From Vairimorpha necatrix (taxonomy: Eukaryota), in the NCBI GenBank assembly GCA_036630325.1, contig CP142735.1, forward strand, positions 868,001 through 932,000: a DNA stretch of 64,000 bases, in the 5' to 3' direction. The stretch's first letter is position 1. Every line of letters starts with the position of its first letter. The notes under the pieces were generated by a model. It was not told where the DNA came from. It saw only the letters and a list, made by a program, of their open reading frames with translations, and ran no database searches. This document shows positions 3,159-57,890 of this stretch, in pieces. The translations under genes were made by a program, and so were the position numbers.

Positions 3159-3553
3159 GTGTGTGAGTTTGTTTGTATTTTGTTTTTTTATAAACAAAAA
3201 AACAAACAAAAACAAAATAAAACTAAAACATAAATATTTTAAAAATATTTGCATAATTATAACATATTATTAATATTATGTATATTATTTTAGTAATATT
3301 ATGTATATTATTTTAGTAATATTATAATTGATGTACTATAATTCATTATGCAAATATCTTATAATAAACTTATATTATATATATTATATATATTATTATT
3401 ATATATATTATTATTATATATATTATATTTCATATAGTATAATTCATATATTACATTATGCAATATTTCTTACTTGATTTTTTATACAACCCCGCTTTCC
3501 ATTTTTTTTTCCTTTTTATATTCAATTTTTTATATTTTTTTTACCCCCTAAAA

Positions 3554-3940
3554 ATGAATATCGAAATGTCAAGAATCTACACTGATTTAATAGAAGAAGT
3601 CCTCACAAAACTGGAAATAGAAGGAGAACCAGAAGGAATAGGCAGAAATATAATCTTCGACATCCAAAAAGGATGGAGGAAAAATATAAGAGAATGGTAT
3701 GAAAATCCAAAAAAAGAAGAAAATAAAGAAAAATCTGTAGACACATCTTCTACAGATTTATATTTGTCATCTGATGAAGAATATGAAATGATGGAAGAAA
3801 CTTCAAATTTCTTAATGTGTATGTATGTGAAAGTATCAAGGACCAAATGTAAATATAAATGTAATTTTAAACAAGGATTTGTTAATTTAGGGAATGTGGA
3901 TTTTGCATTTAGTAATGCGCAGGGTGAATTGGAATGGTAA
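3554..3940 (+). CDS. TOA1: Transcription factor IIA large subunit (alpha/beta), compact
   Basis: N-terminal IY..LIEEV...W helix and C-terminal MCMYVKVSRTKCKYKC...AQGELEW; ATG after CCCCC. Confidence 0.88.
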   Translation: MNIEMSRIYTDLIEEVLTKLEIEGEPEGIGRNIIFDIQKGWRKNIREWYENPKKEENKEKSVDTSSTDLYLSSDEEYEMMEETSNFLMCMYVKVSRTKCKYKCNFKQGFVNLGNVDFAFSNAQGELEW

Positions 3941-28166: not shown

Positions 28167-30738
28167 GAAAGGGGCGTTAGTTTTTTTTACAGCTCAACAA
28201 AAATTTAGTGAGGTAATAAATAACATCTTAATTTTTTTTTCTGTTATTTACAATATTTATTATATATAAATTAATGACAAATCTAATCAAAGAAGAGAAA
28301 TTAGGTCATTTAACAGATAATTTATATTTTTTTGTTTTCTGACTTATTTACTCACTTTAAGATGAGATTGAGATGAATTATCGACGCATAAAGGGTTTAA
28401 AGGTCTCAATTTTGCCTTTCAATTACTATAAACAAACATTTGTTCTTTTTCTTTGTATAGTTTAATATTATTTTTATAGATTTTAAATCGTCAGAATTTT
28501 GTGTTTCCTTTTTATGTTTTGGATTAAAAATAAGTTTGAATTTGGTTTACATCATGAAATCATTTTAATAATGATATTAATAATACGTTGTCACTAAATG
28601 CTACAAATGTATTATTTAATTTGTACTTTATAATAGATGTTATGTAATTTTCTTGGGAATTATACATGCATACCTAGATCATTCTTTTTTATTATAAGAT
28701 TTTTAAGTTTTCCTAGCATAAAAAAATTTCAAATTTAAATATTTTTCTTATCTGTGTTAGCAAATATATCGTCAGAAAAGATGTTTTTAGTTTTTATTTC
28801 GATTGTAATTTTTTTTTTCGTTTTAATACCACAAAGCTTCGATAAATAAAAAAAATGTAATGTAAACTGTCAAATGCTTTATGATTACGAATATCATGCG
28901 GGTGAAAATATATAATATTTATAGGGGGATACGACATAAACAATATGCTCTAAAATTTAAATTTTAAGCTTATTATACACCTATTAAGTTAATTTCTAAA
29001 ATAAAAGAAAAAATATCAATTCAATATTTTTTAAAATATAATTATGCCTTACACTTTTTTATGAGTAATATATAGAAAGAACTAATATCTATTATAAATT
29101 GCAAAATACATATTCTTATTCATGTATAATATTGACATTAGACCTGTAATAAAAAATGTCAATATATAGATATACGCGGACATAAAAAAAAACATATTAT
29201 TGGTATATATTAGCTTGTCAATAGATAGGTCAAAAATTATATGTTTCCATGTTAGAATTAGCAATTCATGTAACATAATTATTAAAAATTGGGAATTATT
29301 AAAAATATAATGAAATTAAAGATGTTCGAATATAGCAATTAGGGATTTTTTTTAGATTATGTGTTTATTATTTCTAAATAATCAAACAACAAGTTCGTTT
29401 CCATTGTACCTTCAGGTTATATTCTAGTTTCTTGTGATAATTTATGTATTAGCTTTTGGACGTCATTTTTATTGTCTTGTATCTTTTTATTTTTTACAAA
29501 AAAATACAGAGACAGTGATAAATAATGTTTTATATACATAGTAGGATATTATTAAATACTTTATCACCCATTTTATTGTTATGTTGTATATAATATGAAT
29601 TACAAACTGCTTAAAAGAGGGGAAAGTATTATCTTAACAATGCCGTTAATACTTCCGTAAATAATTGGGAAACCATTTCGTATACCAATAAATCATATTC
29701 TCTACGTTCCAAATCTAACACGCTTTTTATGATATTCTGGAGTAGTTTATAACTACGTTGAACAATTTTTCAACCATTTTCTTATTTTCACTAACAGCTA
29801 ATATTATCATTTGATGATTAAAATTATTTTTTTGACATGTTTCTTTGTTTATTAATATATGAGCATATTGCCTTTTATACTCATCTGTGAAATGAGGTCA
29901 CTTTGCAAATATAAACTTGATTTTTATGTAAAGTATAGCTATAAATTGGCTGGGGAAATCTGAAAGAATCCAATTGAGATCGATTTTATTGATCCTATAG
30001 TGATGACGGCTGTATATTAAATACATACATGATATGTTTTGTACTAAAACTGTTATCTTTTTCGTTTGTTGCAAAATAAATTTTTTTAAATTGGTTTGAA
30101 CTAAATACGTATAGGTAATTGATAATCATAAAATTGAGTATTGTTTTTTATAAATCTTAAAATACTTATTGCGGAAAGAAAAGTCCGGTATTATCAATTG
30201 GTAAGCTGTTTTGTTTATCTAATGTTCAATTTACTTATTATAAACACGACGATTATTTAAATAATTATAATTTAATTAAAAATACCCTAGTTTAGATTTT
30301 GTACTAGACCAGAGCATTCATAAGCAAAATTTAATTAAACTAATTTTAATAACATTAATATATGATAAATAATGCCATTATATCAATTTTGTGTTCCAAA
30401 TCAAAAAATTTACTTGCGATATAAAAAAATAACCTTTGTCTTTATCGGCTAATTTCATTAAAGTTCTCCTATTTATATAATTAAAAATATATTTTTTCGT
30501 TTTAAAATCGAAGATTAAGAGAAGTTTTGCAAACAATAAATTTTAAAAAACAACAAAATCTTATTGCGAATATTTTTTGACCATGAAATATTACATAACT
30601 ATTTCTTTTTAATTGTGTAAAGTTATTGTAAAATAATTTATAAACTTAAATATGTATTATAATTGTTTATTTTAAGATATCTTAGGGGTAATAAAAATAC
30701 AAATTTATAAATATTCAACATCCCTCCTCTTTTATAAG

Positions 30739-31682
30739 CTAATATACAAGTACTTTGAGTTGAGACGCATGTCTTTTAAGCCTTCTTCCTTTTGATAATA
30801 CTATATACGAATTATTTTCTAATCGTTCTATAATCTGTCCTCTATCTTTAAACTTGGGTTGTCCTTTAGCTACAGCAAATTCGTTCTTTATTATCACCTG
30901 ATCGTTTTCATTGAACACTTCTTCGACTTCTTTATTCTCGTTTGCTTTGTTAAAGATAATAATTTCTTCGTATTGTTTTTCTTTTATTTTTGTCTCGTTT
31001 TCTTTTTTACAAGCTTCGTTTGGTGACATTCCTAGTTTCGAGTGGCAGATATTATTGTAAGCCTCTAACATTTTTAATAGTTTTGATTTTAGATTTAGAT
31101 TTCCCTCTTGTTTGTAAATCCCTTCCTGCACAGTTCTATTAAATCTTTCTACACGCCCATTTGATTGATGGTGAAAGGGCGTTGTGTAATGTACTTTTAC
31201 TTTATTCTCTATAGCCCAGTTCTTTACTTTGCTACTTTGGTTTTCTTTTGATGAATCCATTATCAACTCTTTAATTAATATTTGTTTGTTAATTTCGTTT
31301 ATAAAATCTACAATTTTCTGACTATCTCTAGTGGTAATAACTTTTCCAAACCCCTTTCTACTAAAGTAATCAATTCCTGTTATTATATATTGTTTATTTA
31401 TTGGTCCTATAATGTCTATAGCTACCTTTTCTCCTGTATAAAACGATTTAACGAACAAAAAGGCTTTTCCTCTTTTTGGATTATACATTTTACATCTTAT
31501 ACACTTTTTCAACTCTTCTTCAACTAATTTCTCCATATTATCCCAAGTATATTCCCTTTTAAGCTCTTTGGCTACTATTTTTGCTCCACGATGAACAAAT
31601 TTTTCGTATTTATCTTTAATAAGTTTCCTTTTTGTGTCATCATTTAAATCTTGAATTTCATTAACAACTTGGGCATCTTTTG
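30739..31682 (-). CDS. Integrase part of pol (different frame, joined by a shift near 31680)
   Basis: Frame reads KDAQVVNEIQ...VHRG...YTW..M...CIRC, IDIIGP, DYFSR, MDSSKE, SNGRVERFNRT; open to the stop before the PPT. Confidence 0.88.
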
Positions 31683-33950
31683 GTATAAGCGAGATATATA
31701 GTCTACATGTGCCATTTCTGCTCCCTTTCTGTATTTTACTGTGAAATTATACTGACTAAGTCTATCTAGCCATCTCTGTATTCGTTGAGAGCCTATTTCT
31801 CCTTTATTCAGAACTTCTAAGGCTTTATGGTCTGTTATTACTTCAAATTTATTCCCGTACAAGAAATATTTAAAATTCTCCATTGCCCATAATACTGCTA
31901 AGCATTCCTTTTCACTAATACTATAGTTTATCTCAGCAGGTAAAAGTCTTCTTGAAGCATATGAAATTGGATAAATCGTTTCACCTTGTCTCTGTGAGAG
32001 AATTGCGCCAACACCTGAATTACACGCATCTGTTTCTAGTATAAATGGTTTTGCATAGTCTGGTTGATATAATGCTATATTTGATTTTATAATAGTTTTA
32101 AGCTCATTGAAAGCTTTATCTTCCAGTTCTCCCCAACAAAAATTTTTATCTTTTTTGAGTAAATCATACAAGCATCCTGCAACACTTGAGCACATGGGAA
32201 TAAATTCTCTATAAAAATTTATAAAGCCAAGAAATTCTTGTAAAGATTTTATATTTTGGGGCGGTTTAATTTCATCAATACCTTGGCTAGCTTCTAATTT
32301 TGGTTTTATTTTGTTATATTCTATTATGTGTCCTAAAAATTCTACTGATGTCTTTTTGTAGATAGTTTTATCTTCATTTAATCGCAAATCATTATTTTTT
32401 AATCGTTCTGTTATAATCCGAAAATTTTTATCATGAATTTCTTCAGTTGTTCCAAAGACCAAAATATCATCAACATAAATGAAACATCTTTTACCAATAT
32501 CCTCTTGTAAAACATCATCCATAAACCGTTGAAATATAGCCGGCGAATTTTTAAAGCCCATTGGCATTACATTCCATTCGTACAAATGATGTTTATGTCT
32601 AAAAGCTGTCTTGTGCCTGTCTTCTTCTGCTAATTCTATTTGAAAAAATCCATCTTTTAAATCTAACTTTGAAAAATATTTTTGATCTTTTAAATTATGT
32701 AAAATTCTTTCTATACTTGGAAGCGAATATTTATCCAAATCTACTAACTTATTAAGTGCAATCAAATTTGTTGTTACTCGAACCGATCCATCTGGTTTCA
32801 TAACTGGTCTAAGATTGTTTAACCACGTAGATCTTGATTTTTGAATATATTTTTTCATTAACAACTTTTCTATCTCGGCGTCTATGGCTACTTCTAATTT
32901 CTGTGGCAATCCATACACTCTTTCTACGACCTTTTCTCCAGGTTTTGTTTTAATTTGACACACTCTGTTTTTTGGCTTTGCAAAAATTTTGATTAACTCC
33001 TGTTTTCCTAATAAAATTTTAAATTTATCAACCTTTGGTAAAATAAAGAGTTCGGTTTTATATATTTTGTCCATATAATTAAATTCAAGCTCTACTATAT
33101 CTCGTACTTTAAATTCTTCATCTAAACACGTAAAAAAGCTCAATTGCTTTATCCTCCTCGACACCTGTAATTTCAATTCTCTAACTGCACAATAAGAAAT
33201 AAAATTGAAACTAGAACCAGAATCAAAAACCACAGGTACTTTCTTAAAATTAACGTAGACGTAATTGTTTTTATTTTCATAAAATGAAGTGCTTTCTTCT
33301 AATCTCTCTTCATTATCAGATACTACCTCATGTACTTGCTTACTTGAACCAGTATCTCTATTTCTATTCCGAAAATAGCAACTTGTAGAAACGTGTCCTG
33401 GCTTTTTACAAATGAAGCAGGTTAAAGTTTTTCTCGGAGTTTCTTTTATGCTTAAATTTTTGAAGGAGAATGATAAATCGGCCTCCTTCTCCATTTCTTC
33501 AATGGTTTCATAAAATTCATCGTCAGTGTCATATTTACTGGATAAAAATATTTTTATAAGTTTATATCTGGGTTTAATACCGTTTTTTAGAATTTTCCTT
33601 CTATCCTTTTCTTCAATTTTTAAATCTTCGCATAATTTTATCGTTTCCTTTATAAATACAGAAACTGATTCATTATCCCTTTGTTTCTTAGAGCAAAGGT
33701 CTACAATAGAAATTTTTGTACTAAATTTCTCTATTGCTTTGTTTTTCCAATCTTCATAATTATAACTTGCTTTTCTTTTATTAGCAAATTCTTCTAAATG
33801 CCAGTTTAAGATATTTTCATCAAATCTACTTATAAATTCTTCCATTTTATCTTCGTCCTTTTTTATATTCCATTTACTAAGAGCCTCTGCTCTTTTTATT
33901 TCATGTATTATGTTGTTTTTAGTTATTTTTTCGTTCATATTCTCCACCAT
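31644..33950 (-). CDS. Gag-protease-RT-RNase H polyprotein (frameshifted before integrase)
   Basis: CFICKKPGHVSTSC knuckle, VFDSGSS protease, LDLKDGFFQ, MPMGFKNSP, YVDD, ETDAC, EKE, TDH. Confidence 0.93.
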   Translation of the reverse strand: MVENMNEKITKNNIIHEIKRAEALSKWNIKKDEDKMEEFISRFDENILNWHLEEFANKRKASYNYEDWKNKAIEKFSTKISIVDLCSKKQRDNESVSVFIKETIKLCEDLKIEEKDRRKILKNGIKPRYKLIKIFLSSKYDTDDEFYETIEEMEKEADLSFSFKNLSIKETPRKTLTCFICKKPGHVSTSCYFRNRNRDTGSSKQVHEVVSDNEERLEESTSFYENKNNYVYVNFKKVPVVFDSGSSFNFISYCAVRELKLQVSRRIKQLSFFTCLDEEFKVRDIVELEFNYMDKIYKTELFILPKVDKFKILLGKQELIKIFAKPKNRVCQIKTKPGEKVVERVYGLPQKLEVAIDAEIEKLLMKKYIQKSRSTWLNNLRPVMKPDGSVRVTTNLIALNKLVDLDKYSLPSIERILHNLKDQKYFSKLDLKDGFFQIELAEEDRHKTAFRHKHHLYEWNVMPMGFKNSPAIFQRFMDDVLQEDIGKRCFIYVDDILVFGTTEEIHDKNFRIITERLKNNDLRLNEDKTIYKKTSVEFLGHIIEYNKIKPKLEASQGIDEIKPPQNIKSLQEFLGFINFYREFIPMCSSVAGCLYDLLKKDKNFCWGELEDKAFNELKTIIKSNIALYQPDYAKPFILETDACNSGVGAILSQRQGETIYPISYASRRLLPAEINYSISEKECLAVLWAMENFKYFLYGNKFEVITDHKALEVLNKGEIGSQRIQRWLDRLSQYNFTVKYRKGAEMAHVDYISRLYQKMPKLLMKFKI

Positions 33951-35246
33951 GTTTATTTTAAGATATCTTAGGGGTAATAAAAATACAAATTTATAAATAT
34001 TCAACAATAATAAACAATTTTGAAGCTTTTACGACAATTTTATGATAAAAAGACGCAGAAGCAAACATTAATCAACTCAAATGGTTAAAAAATGTACGAT
34101 TTTTGATCAACGAAATTTGAATTTATTTCGTAAATGAAAATTTGGTATAAATCGATATATTTTATGTCATAAAATAAAGAGTTGCCTCTTAGTAGAACTT
34201 GCTGGTTCTATGATTAATAAAACAAAAAATACTAAAAAATCAAAATACTATTAGATTTATGTTTATATTGTTTAATTTTGATAATAGAAAGTTAGTATAA
34301 ACGAATACGAGTTCCAAAACAATATAGAATTAGCATAAAAAAATCATGCGGCCTTGAAAAAGCGTATGACAGTACAATCGAGATAATTAAGTGTGAAAAC
34401 AACAGGAGCTTTTATGGGACGTACCATTTTAGGCGATAATATCGGCTTTACCGGGTCAAGAGATCCACCTCAAAATTCGAATTTTATGACTTTTACAAAC
34501 AAATTTTTATACTAGTAGACGAGATTTACTCCTCAGACAGAAGGTAAAATTTAAAATAAAAACAAAATTAAACATTTTATAATACACTTTATTTTTTAGT
34601 AATCTGCTGCTCGAGAGCAGTCATACTTTACTTACGTTGCCATTGTTTTTACGCAATTTTCGTTAAGCTTATTAAGGTATCCACCACTGAGGAAAGTATG
34701 TAAAATGTTTTTAATGTAATTTTTACTTTTGCTTTCCATTACTCCGTCCCCAATTCGGGTAAAATAATTAAATAAATGTTGGAGGGGAAACAGGACGAAT
34801 TTGGAGGGAAAGATTTTAGAAATATTTTTTATGATATTTAGTATATCATACTTATTATTTCTCTTAGAGTGTAATATTTTTTTTCATAGAGAAAATTTTC
34901 AAATATTTTATATCAGTAGAAGAGATTCAACCATAGAAGAGATCCATGGCCTTTTCTATGGGGTGGATCTCTTAGCCCGGAAAACCAAGGAGCATTTTTT
35001 CGATATATTGCCTTTGAAAACAAAAAGTACTTTCTTATGTTGTATTTATTTATATTATTGGATTTTACTTTTTTCTTGTTCGAAATTTTGCACAAATTTT
35101 TTATTAATATATATATTCACATAACGAGGTTAAAGTATATTGTTTTTTTAAACGTATAATTAAAATCTTTTTTAAAATAAGATACAACCTTTTATCTGAA
35201 AATTTATTTGTTTTAATTGCAATTTCTACTAAAATACAAAAAAATA

Positions 35247-36241
35247 GGCTGGCTAAGTCCATTCTAGCACGCAAAATTCGATATAGGGGGTTTTGTGTTT
35301 TTTTGTCCCTTTTTTTAAAAAATGGAGGAGGGAAAATGTGGATGAAGGAACAAAAATTATCACAATAAATTTAATAATGCATCAAAAACAGAATTAGAAT
35401 TATTTATCTAGAGCAAATACCTAAATAAATAAAGTCTTGCACTATAACTGATCTATTTCTATTAGGTATGGAATTTTAAAGGGAACGCAAATTACCTTCT
35501 ATGGTGTTGGTATGAACTCCCTTATTTAGATCCCTGAAATACAATGAATGATTAGCCATATGAGTTTGGTTAAATATAGTACCCAAATAATTGTAGGCTC
35601 TCCACATATCGCTATATATAATGCTATATCCAATTACATATTTCACCAGAAGATCAGTAAGTGTTTCTTTATCCCTTTTTAATATGTAGCATTATGATTT
35701 TACGTTCTATGGTTCGTTAGACCATGCCAAAACACCAGAAGCCTTTCACTAATTTACCTCTATTGTATTTATTTTTTCCAATTTTTGATTCGTCGATTTC
35801 TACTATTATCCCTTGTCCACCCAGCATGTCAGAGAGATAAATATTTTTCGTAAATGCATATTTCCTTTAGTTTTTTCAATAATGAAGATATTGATTTTTT
35901 CGTACAACTTAAAATTTGACAAATATGCTTCCGAGAATAACCGATAACCCACATGTTAAGTATCTGTAAAAATGTTATATGTTTGAGTTTACAATTATCA
36001 AAGAACGTATCATGCCAAATGTTAATTGAATTTTTACAATCTTTCCAAGTACACTTTAAGATACTACTGTCTTTTCTATCTTTCTTTCCCCATTCCACCA
36101 TGATTTATATCACAAAATTTCTTTTGAAAAATCTTTATCTAATCATTATATATGATTTCTAATCTTCTCTCGTTAAAATTCTCTCCTCCATTTTTTAAAA
36201 AAACCTATAACGAATTTTGCGTGCTAAAGTGGACTTTAGCC
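35247..36241 (-). mobile_element. Merlin (IS1016/ISXO2-like) DNA transposon, degenerate
   Basis: Imperfect TIRs GGCTAA(A)GTCCA.T.TAGCACGCAAAATTCG.TATAGG at both ends. Minus-strand fragments GGQGIIVEIDESK, KYNRG, SDMWRAY, NHS, GVHTNTIEG with stops. Approximate 8-bp TSD (AAAAAATA/ATAAAATA). Confidence 0.88.
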
Positions 36242-36539
36242 ATAAAATAATATCTCGACACGGTTAATATTATAAAAAATTGAATCCCTAATGTGTATAC
36301 ACATGTTGTTTTTTCATAATTCTATGACACTTAAAATTAATTATGTTAATTTAAATTGTAATTTTAACCAATGTGTATATTACAATATTTTTCGTACGAT
36401 AATATATTTATTAAAATATTATAAAAACATTTTTATATATAAAAAATTGTGCAGATTTTTGATTAGATAATACTATTACTATGACGCATTATGTATAATT
36501 CAATAATCATTTATCAAAAAGCAAGTAAAATACATTAAA

Positions 36540-39500
36540 TGTTATAATCAGTAATAATATTAAACCCCAATTATGTTAAGCACTTATATGGGGGTGATAC
36601 CTAAAGAAGAGTTCACAAGAGAGGACTGTGGCCAAGTGGCCAGAAAGATGTTACAGGAGTTAGAGCGTATATTGTATGAATTGGATTTGAGAGATGTGGA
36701 TAGAGAGAAATGGAAGAGTGAGCTGTTCAAATTGGCTTCGATGGATTTAAAAGATTTTATTGTGAGAAATATCAAAAAGGAAGAAAATATTGAAGGAATA
36801 AGGAAGAAGCTATTGTTAAGGATTAAGGAAGTAGAGGAGGAAGAAAAGATATATGAGGAAATGAGAAAAATTATTTCTAGGACTATAAATGAAGAAATTA
36901 GTAGAGAACAACCAAGACAAAAATCGAGAGTACCGAGATGCTTCTATTGTGATAGACAAGGGCATAGGGTGTTTGAATGCAGACTGAAGATTAATAGAGA
37001 TAATTATTATAAAAAGAATAACAAGGATAACAGTTGCAAAATGGAAGTAGGTAGTGAATCAGAGTCAAGTCAGGAGCGAGATTTTAGAAGATCAAAAAGA
37101 GGACTTAGAGTCAAATTTGAGAAAAATCAAAAAGAATATGCCGTTAAAGAGGAGAGTAAGAGAATCAGATTAAATTTAGATAAGAATGCTAAGAGTTTTG
37201 GAGAGGTTTTTAAGTTAGGAAAAGAGGAGATAAAATATTGTAAACTGGAAAAATGTAAAATTAATACTGAAGCGGGTATGAAGGTATTTAAAAAGGGACA
37301 AATGGTTCCGCAGGCGTTGATAAAAGATACAGAGCTACATCTAGAAGATTTATTAAAAAGGAAAGTGATAAGAGAGTCAAATTCAAGTTGGAGGAATCCT
37401 ATAAGGTCAATCAGAAAGCCAAATGGTGAGATAAGACTGGTTAGTAATTTGATGGCATTGAACGATATTGTAGAAAAGGACGAGTATAGATTGTCTAACA
37501 TAAGAGATGTTGTAAGAGCTACACAAGGTGCAAAATATATGACGGGTTTCGACTTAAAAGAGGCCTTCTATAGTATTGAGATAGAGGAGGAGGATAAACA
37601 TAAGACGGCGTTTGATTTTAATGGCAAGGTTTATGAATGGAACTCTATGGTTATGGGATATAAGAATAGCCCGCAGATATTGCAGAGAATTATGGATAGG
37701 ATTTTTAGAGATATGAAAGGCAAAGGAGTAGAGGTGTATATGGACGATATTGTGTTGTACAGCCGAACGATAGGAGAACACGAGCAATTAGTGAAAAGGG
37801 TATTAAATAGACTGAAGGAAAACAATATGAAGCTGAATGCAAATAAAGTTCAGTTTTGTCAACGGGAAGTTAAATTATTGGGAGTCACTTTAAATGGAGA
37901 AGATATAATACCGTCAAGATAAAGAAAAATGAAGCCCTAGAGTTTCCGATACCAACATGCGTGTCAGATGTAAGAAGATTTTTAGGAATGACGGGTTGGT
38001 TCAGAGATTTTATTAAGAATTACGCTGGATTGACAGTTAGGTTGACAGATAGTTTAAAAGGGAAGAATGATAATTGGAAGTGGACGGATGATATGAAAAA
38101 CGAGTTTAATAATTTAAAAGAAGTATTGAAAGGCCTAGGAAAGCTGCAAATAGCAGACTATGATAAAGAATTTTTGTTGAGGACTGACGCTAGTAATGTA
38201 GGCATGGGCGCAGTACTGTTACAGAAAAATAATCAAGGAGAATGGGTGCCAGTACAGTGGGCGTCTAAGAAGTTTACCGTTACGGAAGTTAATTATGGTA
38301 TATCAGAAAAAGAAATGTACGCAGTTTTTTGGGGCGTTAAAAAGTTTGAATATGAATTAAGAGGTAGGAAATTTAGAATAGAAACTGATCATAAAGCGTT
38401 GGGCGAAATAAGAAACAAGCCCGACTTTAAGAATGCTAGAATTAATAGATGAGTCGAGAAGATTCAGGAATTTGATTTCGTGATAGAATATAGAACTCCA
38501 GAAAATATGGTCGTAGCCGATGCGCTAAGTAGGGTATATACAGAAGAAAAAGATGCAAAGAAAAAGAGAAATGAAATACGCCGTGATAGACAAAAAGAAG
38601 GGAAAAGAAATAAGCATGTAAAAATTGTAGAAGGTAAAGAATACTGGGTATTTGATAGTGGTAGAGAAGGCGAGATGCCTTTGGAACAAGACAGAGAGAG
38701 ATTAATAATGGATTGTCATGTCAATTTGAGCCACAGAAGCAGAACAACGGTATATTATGAGTTGAGGAAACAGTATTATTGGCCAGGAATTAAGGATCAG
38801 ATCGAAAAGGTCCTTAAGAATTGCGAGACTTGTCAGATTTTTAATAGAAAAACGAGTGGCGGTACTGATTTAGTGAACACGACAAGATATTTAGAGAAGG
38901 TTGGCTTAGATTTAATAGAATTTAGGGATGAGAAAGCGTTTATTGTTTTGGCAGTTGATTACTTTACAAGGAGATTATGGGGCAGAGTATTGAAGAGCAA
39001 GCACGCATCTGGAATTGCCGAATTTATCAAGGATTTGTGTAAACAGGGTAGAAAACCAGAGGAAATCATTACGGATAATGGTAAAGAGTTTTGCAACGAA
39101 AAAGTTACCGAGCTATGTAGAAATTTGGATATTAGTCATAGAAAGGTCAGCGTTGAGTCGCACAGAAGTAATGGAAGAGTAGAAAGAGTTATTAGAACTG
39201 TAAGAGATAGTATTTTAAAGAGCCAAAAAGAGGAATTCGAGAACAAGGTTTATGAAGCTATTGAGAAATATAATTTAAGTTTTCATGCTGGTATTAGGTG
39301 CACGCCAGTAGAAGCTTTAACCGATAATACAGGAAATGTTAGTATGGAGAATAGTCCAGAGGGAAAGTATGCGCAACAGTTCAAAAGTTGGTTTAGAGAA
39401 AAGTTCAAAAGGAACCAGATAGTTAGGGTTGCCAAGAATGAGAATTTAAAGGGATGTAGTAAGTATAGTAAGGGTCGATTTTTAGACATGGGAAGAGTGA

Positions 39501-39680
39501 TTGAGCTATGTCCAGGGGATTCATATATAGTGAGATTAGAGAATGGAAGGTTGGTGAAAAAAAGGCATTATGATCTTAAGGGTGTAGGGGATTTAAAGTA
39601 TGTTGAAGGAGACTAACCGTCTGGAGGGGGATGTTATAATCAGTAATAATATTAAACCCCAATTATGTTAAGCACTTATA
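36540..39680 (+). mobile_element. Ty3/gypsy LTR retrotransposon with 49-bp LTRs (TG...TA)
   Basis: Identical 49-bp repeats (36540-36588, 39632-39680); TSD TTAAA on both sides; PBS TGGGGGTGATACC from 36589; PPT GGAGGGGGA (39623-39631). Confidence 0.94.
36573..39616 (+). pseudogene. Gag-RT-RNase H-integrase polyprotein with one frameshift (~37917) and one nonsense codon (TGA 38450-38452); no visible protease
   Basis: CFYCDRQGHRVFEC, FDLKEAFY, YMDD, RTDAS, ETDH, H..SH...C..C, DLIE, TDNGKEF, SNGRVER. PSR* continues as IKKNEALEFP in the next frame, and RINR*VEK is at the conserved RW. Confidence 0.9.
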
Positions 39681-39691
39681 TTAAATTAATT

Positions 39692-57088: not shown

Positions 57089-57890
57089 AGGTGCCCTTGG
57101 CCGAGTGGTCGAAGGCATGTTCTCATTGACCAATGGGCTGGGTTCGAGTCCCAGGGGCACCAAATTGTTTCTACTTTCTATGATGCAGTTGGAACAACTC
57201 AGATGATGAAAATGTCCACGGTAATCATTAAGTTGATTCAATGAAACTTGTGTGTGTCCAGCCACAAGGGGATTAGCATCTAGTGTAGAAACGCACCTCA
57301 AGGCCAAAAAGCAGTATCGCCCTCTGGTGACTTAATGATACATAAAAGTATCTAATGGGTACGGCCTAGTTGGAGCCCATGGCTGGTGCACTCTAGAGTG
57401 GGATCCTAGAGCTAACTAAGAGACTAGACGAAGTAGGGCAATAGAAGGTCTCGTGGACCCTATCCTACATGATTCTGTAACACGGTGGCCGAAACTAGTG
57501 GGAGACTGGTGGTCAACGCAGTCCAATAAAAATGCCGGGCTGGGGATGTGGTCGTGTAAGGAGCCGTGTGTGCGATACAGATGATTGTAGGGACCTTTGA
57601 GTCAGTACGATGATGTCTCTCCTCGGGTTATAGATAACCATGCCCGTTAAGTATATCCGCTGTGAGGTCACTCTGGACGCGATTTGAGGTATAAATGGAA
57701 AGTGTTCTCCTGGAGCCAAAGTCCAATGGATACGGCGGAGCTTGCTGCACCGGCAAGTTATACGGAGGGAGTTTTAGTGAGTAAGAATCTCACAGTACCA
57801 GTTGGAAAAGGATCACACCCAAATCCCTCTGGTCCCTATGTAAGGTTTCTCCCTACCTCTTACTTGCAAAGAAAAAAAAAAAAAAAAAAA
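57089..57890 (+). mobile_element. tRNA-derived SINE-like retroposon (~800 bp)
   Basis: Head with A box TGGCCGAGTGG and B box GGTTCGAGTCC; acceptor GGTGCCC/GGGCACC; T-stem CTGGG/CCCAG; poly(A) tail; 14-bp TSD AAATAACAATTGCG (57075-57088, 57891-57904); GC-rich body. Confidence 0.92.

Follow-up and report, generated by a model that had tools for sequence, protein, structure and literature searches.

In-frame junction ATGs and translated primer binding sites in compact Ty3/gypsy retrotransposons of Vairimorpha necatrix

Two compact Ty3/gypsy retrotransposons were identified in a 64,000-nucleotide stretch of the Vairimorpha necatrix genome (assembly GCA_036630325.1, contig CP142735.1, positions 868,001 to 932,000; hereafter "the window"), an AT-rich eukaryotic sequence with a G+C content of approximately 24–34%, and they raise the question of where translation begins when a long terminal repeat (LTR) runs directly into a protein-coding frame. 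Element A (30664–34006, minus strand, 3343 bp) has LTRs of 57 bp, element B (36540–39680, plus strand, 3141 bp) has LTRs of 49 bp, and no leader is present between the LTR and the open reading frame (ORF) in either. A first-pass annotation of the window had proposed that the last base of the LTR and the first two bases of the primer binding site (PBS) together form the gag start codon, with the result that the PBS is protein-coding. The present analysis partly supports that interpretation as a whole: the leaderless layout and the protein-coding PBS are real and hold across the clade, whereas the use of the junction ATG as the gag start is favored in A, where it is the 5′-most AUG, and is opposed in B by an in-frame ATG located 15 nt upstream within the LTR. 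We consider it fairly probable that these elements belong to a nearly leaderless clade of microsporidian Ty3/gypsy retrotransposons in which the junction AUG is in frame and the PBS is translated.

The junction in A, B, and their relatives

On the minus strand, the 5′ LTR of A (33950..34006, TGTT...AACA) ends in an A that, together with the TG opening the PBS (33939..33949, TGGTGGAGAAT), forms an ATG at 33948..33950 in the context AACATGG. Positions 33950..33939 read ATG GTG GAG AAT (M-V-E-N) in frame with the 768-codon gag-pol, and the PBS is thereby read as codons 1 (its TG) to 4. In B, the last base of the 5′ LTR (36540..36588, TGTT...TATA), A36588, joins the TG of the PBS (36589..36601, TGGGGGTGATACC) in an ATG at 36588–36590 that is followed by GGG GTG ATA (MGVI) and is in frame with gag and the reverse transcriptase (RT). 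The LTR end of B is uncertain by one base, since each LTR is followed by a T; if the LTR is taken as 49 bp, the target-site duplication measures 5 bp and the PBS is initiated by TGG. At both junctions, the sequence and the reading frame agree with the codons that had been reported in the first pass.

A PBS begins with TGG because it is complementary to the CCA end of a tRNA, and an LTR that ends in A and directly adjoins such a PBS generates the junction ATG automatically; the ATG itself is therefore uninformative, and the informative parts are the absence of a spacer and the reading frame, which by chance would be correct with a 1-in-3 probability per element. A zero spacer and an in-frame junction ATG were found in 5/5 elements available at the DNA level (A, B, L024, L025, and L026), which carry four different PBS sequences. 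The last three are complete elements on short contigs mis-binned in bacterial metagenome-assembled genomes (MAGs), and in each the LTR ends in AACA: the 58-bp LTR of L024 is followed by TGGTGGAGAAC (MVEN) and contains no ATG, the 67-bp LTR of L025 is followed by TGGCACCCGACG (MAPD) and has an in-frame ATG at −15, and the 176-bp LTR of L026 is followed by TGGCGACAGCG (MATA) and has in-frame ATGs at −48 and −162. Across the five LTRs, each of the four upstream ATGs keeps the frame, and the number of out-of-frame ATGs is 0, compared with 3.2 expected from shuffled sequences (P = 0.036).

The LTR termini of A, B, L024, L025, and L026 form a short inverted repeat, TGTT...AACA, with TGTC in L026 and a TATA end in B; these termini account for the Asn codon that recurs just before the junction Met in related proteins. 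The ORF of L024 comprises 1095 codons (L024:265–3549) and extends from within the 5′ LTR to within the 3′ LTR (3535–3592), so that its stop codon is LTR sequence, and no obvious purine-rich tract precedes this LTR. Target-site duplications were not seen around L024–L026, and the contigs are probably assemblies of several copies. Retrotransposon contigs of the microsporidian type, 1.8–4.6 kb in length, were encountered inside bacterial MAGs titled Clostridium, Erysipelotrichales, Carnobacterium, Aeromonas, and Corynebacterium (L024–L028 and L030, and the sources of P0008, P0023, P0032, and P0099), and they represent eukaryotic contamination of the bins.

Conservation of the junction across families, for which the first-pass annotation had called, was further assessed in proteins, and M-[V/G/A] was found at the homologous column in 27/29 relatives with an alignable N-terminus. 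For A, 37 proteins were examined among the 120 matches listed, and 12 A-like sequences had an N-terminus alignable to that of A. M-V-[E/G] occupies one column in 11/12 of these, in 10 cases in the protein itself and in the case of P0008 via its DNA (L024). The column Met is the first Met in four of them (P0007, P0010, P0012, and L024 for P0008), five others have an in-frame Met 5 codons upstream (P0009, P0014, P0016, P0017, and P0018), and such a Met lies 9 codons upstream in P0005 and 18 codons upstream in P0006. For B, 26 N-termini were inspected and 17 were kept, nine being dropped as truncated or unalignable (P0124, P0130, P0134, P0135, P0136, P0141, P0143, P0030, and P0028); M-[G/A/V] is present at the homologous column in 16/17, as the first Met in five (P0123, P0126, P0128, P0139, and P0142) and preceded by a Met 3, 5, 6, or 29 codons earlier in 11. 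The counts cover neither P0021–P0027 nor P0032–P0038, which have long, unalignable N-termini. The source names of the relatives include Vairimorpha necatrix, Nosema granulosis, Dictyocoela muelleri, Enteropsectra breve, and Pseudoloma neurophilia.

Four further searches added no N-termini to this set. A protein search with the gag portion alone (A residues 1–230) gave no match at E ≤ 0.001; a metagenome scan with the A protein returned 23 loci of 27–44% identity, none with detectable LTRs; scans of viral contigs found no relatives; and a profile search of 1.84 billion representatives gave a best 150 composed mostly of long multi-copy fusion proteins, with no new N-termini.

Primer binding sites and candidate primers

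The start of the A PBS, TGGTGGAG, is the complement of CTCCACCA, i.e., of ...CUCCACCA, and the PBS as a whole (TGGTGGAGAAT) is complementary to a tRNA 3′-end of the tRNA-Ala type, ...ATTCTCCACCA. The complement of the A PBS carries the signature of an alanine acceptor with its G3:U70 pair, namely C69 U70 C71 C72, discriminator A73, and CCA; to our knowledge, the G3:U70/A73 rule of alanine identity is universal. As a control, the bacterial MAG that holds L024 (G001) was searched for a T-loop followed by ...TCTCCA, and the five places identified correspond to four tRNA-Ala genes and one tmRNA, all alanine acceptors (5/5); this genome being bacterial rather than microsporidian, the result supports the signature but does not bear on pairing with a tRNA of the host itself. 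The label "Ala-like", which the A PBS had received in the first pass, fits these data. The same 10 nt of the A PBS follow the LTR of L024, and, as predicted from these sequences, the MVEN N-terminus of A would be the translation of a tRNA-Ala-type PBS, of which the "MVE" recurs across families.

A PBS-independent origin of the TGG-initiated sequence, in which priming would occur by self-priming or another primer and MVE would be a feature of the protein, is very improbable. TGG stands directly after the LTR at all five junctions, TGGTGGAG is the exact complement of an alanine-acceptor 3′-end, and V, G, and A are the only second residues in the relatives, all encoded by G-initial codons, as TGG requires. 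In addition, the similarity among the A-like sequences stops directly after residue 4, or approximately 10 nt, as would be expected if some 10 nt of RNA (TGGTGGAGRR), and not the protein, were constrained. Self-priming by pairing of the RNA 5′-end or LTR to the PBS was considered separately and rejected, as no convincing complementarity was apparent by eye.

The PBS of B begins with TGGGGGT and implies a tRNA with discriminator C. Relatives of B read M-G-A (ATG GGN GCN), and B itself has GTG at the third codon, which is consistent with a C-to-T change at PBS position 7 that still allows pairing as G-U. By analogy with the gammaretroviral tRNA-Pro site, which we take to begin with TGGGGGC, the primer of B might be guessed to be tRNA-Pro; the B start and the M-G-A of its relatives are compatible with that site, including the discriminator C, over the only 6–7 nt that can be compared. 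The PBSs of sister families start with TGGC (discriminator G). The occurrence of differing PBSs with the same reading frame suggests that the clade has switched primers several times while the frame was kept.

A scan of the window for tRNAs gave a single tRNA-like gene, called "tRNA-Met" by ARAGORN at 57090–57162, whose 3′-end fits neither PBS and for which Rfam gave no tRNA call. This tRNA-shaped sequence has an encoded CCA, a CAT anticodon according to ARAGORN, and a weak mascRNA-like match (E = 0.0017); approximately 600 nt downstream, at 57755–57860, there is a weak match to the 3′ element of the R2 retrotransposon (E = 0.054). In the MAGs that contain L024 and L025, matches in a tRNA search were largely grouped as tandem clusters in long contigs and were taken as bacterial, and the tRNA of the elements' own host was not identified among them.

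Which ATG starts translation

The full-length RNA of a retrotransposon must start within the 5′ LTR and include the PBS. An ATG scan of the 57-bp LTR of A found no ATG in any frame, and the junction AUG is therefore the 5′-most AUG of any RNA started in this LTR. Two further in-frame ATGs, which the first-pass annotation had not mentioned, have to be weighed beside the junctions: codon 5 of A (33936..33938, minus strand) and, in B, an ATG at 36573–36575 within the LTR, 15 nt before the junction ATG, which gives the N-terminus MLSTY-MGVI... The PBS is translated whichever of these starts is used.

A measure of where starts usually lie is provided by a CCC run, which occurs 0–14 nt before the ATG in 9/13 host ORFs of the window, compared with 7% of random 25-nt windows; in Encephalitozoon cuniculi, 5′ untranslated regions (UTRs) are shorter than 7 nt and a CCC-like motif is placed immediately upstream of the start (PMC2803860). 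A CCC run is present in the four short LTRs (A, B, L024, and L025), with its last C 19–21 nt before the LTR end. In A, this putative start-proximal promoter motif of the host type is a CCCC at 33971..33974 (minus strand), its last C 21 nt before the LTR end, and in B it is a CCCC at 36565..36568, 4 nt before the upstream ATG. B and L025 thus each have a −15 ATG that follows CCC by 4–5 nt, which is the usual host arrangement and makes the −15 ATG the likelier start in these two elements. A and L024 have no −15 ATG, and their junction ATG, the next available, lies 18–20 nt after CCC, somewhat farther than in any of the host genes.

For A and its nearest kin, the lack of any other ATG in the LTR points to the junction ATG as the probable start of translation. 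Several findings weigh against this assignment, or against reading the junction Met as a start in general. The distance of 20 nt from CCC to the ATG in A exceeds that in all nine host genes (0–14 nt), and an A at +4, preferred in the host (7/13), is found at the codon-5 ATG, the junction ATG having a G there (1/13). The closest relative of A, P0004 (54% identity, from the same named species), lacks MVE, and its annotated start corresponds to codon 5 of A, although annotated starts in the V. necatrix record are unreliable, as is evident from P0003, which has an odd start and hops a frame break. Among the B-like proteins, P0129 has no Met at the homologous column; a "first Met" in proteins from contigs of approximately 3 kb can be an artefact of the contig end; the families are related, so that conservation of the frame is in part inheritance and the trials are not fully independent; and both copies in the window are broken downstream.

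Some of these points are accommodated if A is translated from the codon-5 ATG (33938–33936), the junction AUG being passed over on account of its closeness to the cap, its occupation by the tRNA, or a less favorable context; an ATG at the junction would then be a mere by-product of an LTR end followed by TGG. The annotated start of P0004 aligns to codon 5 without a gap, and ATGAAC fits the preference for A at +4/+5 that is seen in the host genes of the window and in E. cuniculi (PMC2803860). However, the codon-5 Met is missing in L024, P0007, P0010, and P0012, whereas MVE is conserved; the codon-5 ATG lies 32 nt after CCC, still further beyond the host range than the junction ATG; and scanning should use the first AUG, which at the junction has an A at −3 and a G at +4. 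A codon-5 start in A, judged from its sequence, therefore appears unlikely, and it would change little for the PBS, since this ATG is no more than 18 nt from the LTR end and part of the PBS region is coding either way. The junction ATG is retained as the favored start of A.

In B, the in-LTR ATG at 36573–36575 is the start that sequence and spacing would favor, with a probability similar to that of the junction ATG in A, and the junction ATG of B is an appreciably weaker candidate. MGVI, which had been read as the N-terminus of B, is thus probably not its N-terminus, given that the upstream ATG stands 4 nt after CCCC and matches the host spacing. The first-pass reading could be rescued if transcription of B started downstream of 36573, the junction ATG (36588) being the start in all families and the upstream LTR ATGs untranscribed. 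The junction ATG is indeed the only ATG common to all families, and its Met is the first Met in 5/17 of the B-like proteins. Against this stands the typical host spacing of the B upstream ATG, together with the repeated occurrence, in LTRs that are unrelated, of an in-frame Met at a distance of exactly 5 codons (B, L025, P0009, P0014/16/17/18, P0029, P0040, P0045, P0125, and P0127) and the fact that the upstream LTR ATGs are all in frame; the recurrence of this position and the consistency of the frame are not easily reconciled with a lack of transcription of these ATGs, and a junction start in every family is consequently improbable. In B and in most families, the upstream in-LTR ATG, usually found at −15 and 4–5 nt behind CCC, appears to be the likelier start, and the junction Met would be internal or a back-up.

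The zero spacer, the in-frame junction ATG, the translated PBS, and the CCC run at a fixed distance from the LTR end are directly visible in the sequences, and they suggest how such an element might work. The mini-LTR would act as a host-type core promoter consisting of an AT-rich stretch and a CCC run approximately 20 nt before the LTR end, and transcription would begin within its final ~20 nt; R and U5 would then together measure at most ~20 nt, and the minus-strand strong-stop DNA would be about that long. Because the LTR ends in A (mostly AACA), the AUG of the RNA would consist of the last LTR A and a UG that pairs with the CA of the primer CCA end, so that reverse transcription would first copy the A of the junction AUG, its U and G being paired to A76 and C75 of the tRNA. 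Short microsporidian leaders may force the start codon near the RNA 5′-end, where R, U5, and the PBS must also lie. An annealed tRNA would mask or abut the start codon in A, or cover codons 6–10 in B, and a translating ribosome would strip the primer tRNA; the plus-strand strong-stop DNA would copy the tRNA 3′-end, and the host tRNA would thereby help to maintain these codons.

If this mechanism applies, one RNA probably cannot be translated and primed at once, as both processes would compete for the same few bases, and a regulatory switch between translation and packaging, as had been suggested in the first pass, is a plausible hypothesis. A stronger form, a toggle operating throughout the clade, is doubtful: annealing of tRNA-Ala, or of tRNA-Pro or another primer, would hide the only usable AUG and commit the RNA to packaging and reverse transcription, ribosomes would evict the primer, and the tRNA would rewrite gag codons 1–4 (M-V-E-N) in each cycle, and the conservation of the "MVE" N-terminus would thereby be accounted for. 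When the 182 nt that follow CCC were folded as RNA, no structure beyond that of shuffled sequences emerged (z = −1.2 for A and +0.7 for B), and the PBS was predicted to be open.

Structure of the elements and comparison with known systems

The remainder of A has the organization of a compact Ty3/gypsy element. Its 3′ LTR (30664..30720, minus strand, 57 bp) is identical base for base to the 5′ LTR, the termini are TG..CA, a polypurine tract (30721..30733) lies directly before the 3′ LTR, and a target-site duplication, ATTAT, is present at 30659–30663 and 34007–34011. The frame counted from the junction ATG (31644..33950, minus strand, 768 codons) encodes gag with a CCHC knuckle, which is visible in the translation, followed by protease, RT, and RNase H, and an integrase frame (30739..31746, minus strand) is offset from the RT frame; the Pfam domains occur in the order RVP_2, RVT_1, RT_RNaseH, Integrase_H2C2, and rve. 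Other copies, in contigs of both public runs, have one extra base behind 31676, which indicates that the copy of A in the window is frame-broken. The V. necatrix protein P0003 is 100% identical to part of the A product, and its annotation bridges this break and begins at an odd internal position. A contig from one public run (X1) joins 30658 to 34007, omitting 3348 bases (the element and one copy of the duplication) with 5 shared letters, and thus represents an empty site, so that the insertion of A is polymorphic and recent. A high-depth contig from X2 jumps from 33945 back 510 bases to 33436, i.e., from the PBS to the middle of gag, the two parts being separated by a single additional letter; possible explanations are a rearranged copy, a partial tandem copy, and an artefact of the assembly graph.

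Element B carries a polypurine tract (39623–39631) and a 3′ LTR (39632–39680) on the plus strand, the latter having the same sequence as the 5′ LTR; the LTR ends are TG..TA, and the target-site duplication TTAAA is found at 36535–36539 and 39681–39685. Its gag-RT-RNase H-integrase region, counted from the upstream ATG, extends over 36573..39616 (plus strand), and no Pfam match to a protease was obtained in B. In the window copy, the frame changes near 37916 and is interrupted by a stop at 38450–38452; in contigs of other copies from the two public runs, there is an extra base behind 37916 and a different letter at 38452, which gives a sense codon. Contigs of these runs show both families to be multicopy, and the LTRs within each element are identical although both window copies are broken downstream; A and B are young, mobile, multicopy elements. 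Between them, at 35476–36104 on the minus strand, there are remnants of an IS1595/Merlin-type DDE transposase (PF12762, E = 2e-5), and the contig depth there is many-fold above that of neighboring unique sequence, indicating that the remnant belongs to a repeat family.

The 5′-end of these elements is extremely compressed, with the putative promoter, R/U5, start codon, and PBS contained in ~35 nt and no leader, and this compression has apparently been shaped by the host rule of near-leaderless mRNAs. The elements offer a clean natural system in which to ask how a single RNA is shared by translation and reverse transcription, a question that has yet to be settled for Ty1 and retroviruses. Standard LTR finders miss LTRs of 49–58 bp, and the PBS-derived M-[V/G/A] start is a marker that could help to annotate starts, LTR ends, and primer tRNAs in microsporidian gypsy elements.

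Among known systems, the gammaretroviral comparison is confined to the PBS of B discussed above; in retroviruses, the leader is long and U5 is commonly separated from the PBS by a spacer. The Nbr elements of Nosema bombycis are microsporidian Ty3/gypsy elements. The open full-text literature searched describes no start codon at an LTR/PBS junction and no microsporidian PBS. Groups of microsporidian Ty3/gypsy elements from the same host phylum and the same superfamily have been reported (Parisot et al., 2014; PMC4202319), and the main text of that report contains 0 mentions of PBS, primer binding, or tRNA and does not describe the junction architecture.

Ty3 of Saccharomyces cerevisiae (Metaviridae) belongs to the same superfamily and has the same domain order, gag (CCHC), protease, RT, RNase H, and integrase. 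It is tRNA-primed, as the elements described here probably are, with a PBS next to the 5′ LTR and a 5′ PBS segment that adjoins a 5′ UTR (PMC4974528). It differs in having this UTR, a bipartite PBS at both RNA ends, and two overlapping ORFs. Unlike in Ty3, intact relatives here show a single polyprotein frame, with no leader and a translated PBS.

The nearest precedent is Ty1 of S. cerevisiae (Ty1/copia, Pseudoviridae), in which the PBS lies within the GAG ORF, as in A and B, and coding sequence is known to contain the signals for packaging and initiation (PMC4974528). Ty1 differs from A and B, which are gypsy elements, in belonging to the copia superfamily; its start codon lies well inside an LTR of the 334-bp class and it has a real 5′ UTR, whereas the LTRs here measure 49–58 bp and the probable start is at the junction or 15 nt before it; and its primer is initiator tRNA-Met, whereas that of A would be of the tRNA-Ala type and other primers would serve the sister families. 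The principle of a translated PBS thus has a precedent, although in a different superfamily and in an element whose LTR and leader are of normal size; new here are the cross-family test of the reading frame, the interpretation of the MVE signature as a translated PBS of the alanine type, the recurrent −15 ATG, and the revised candidate start of B.

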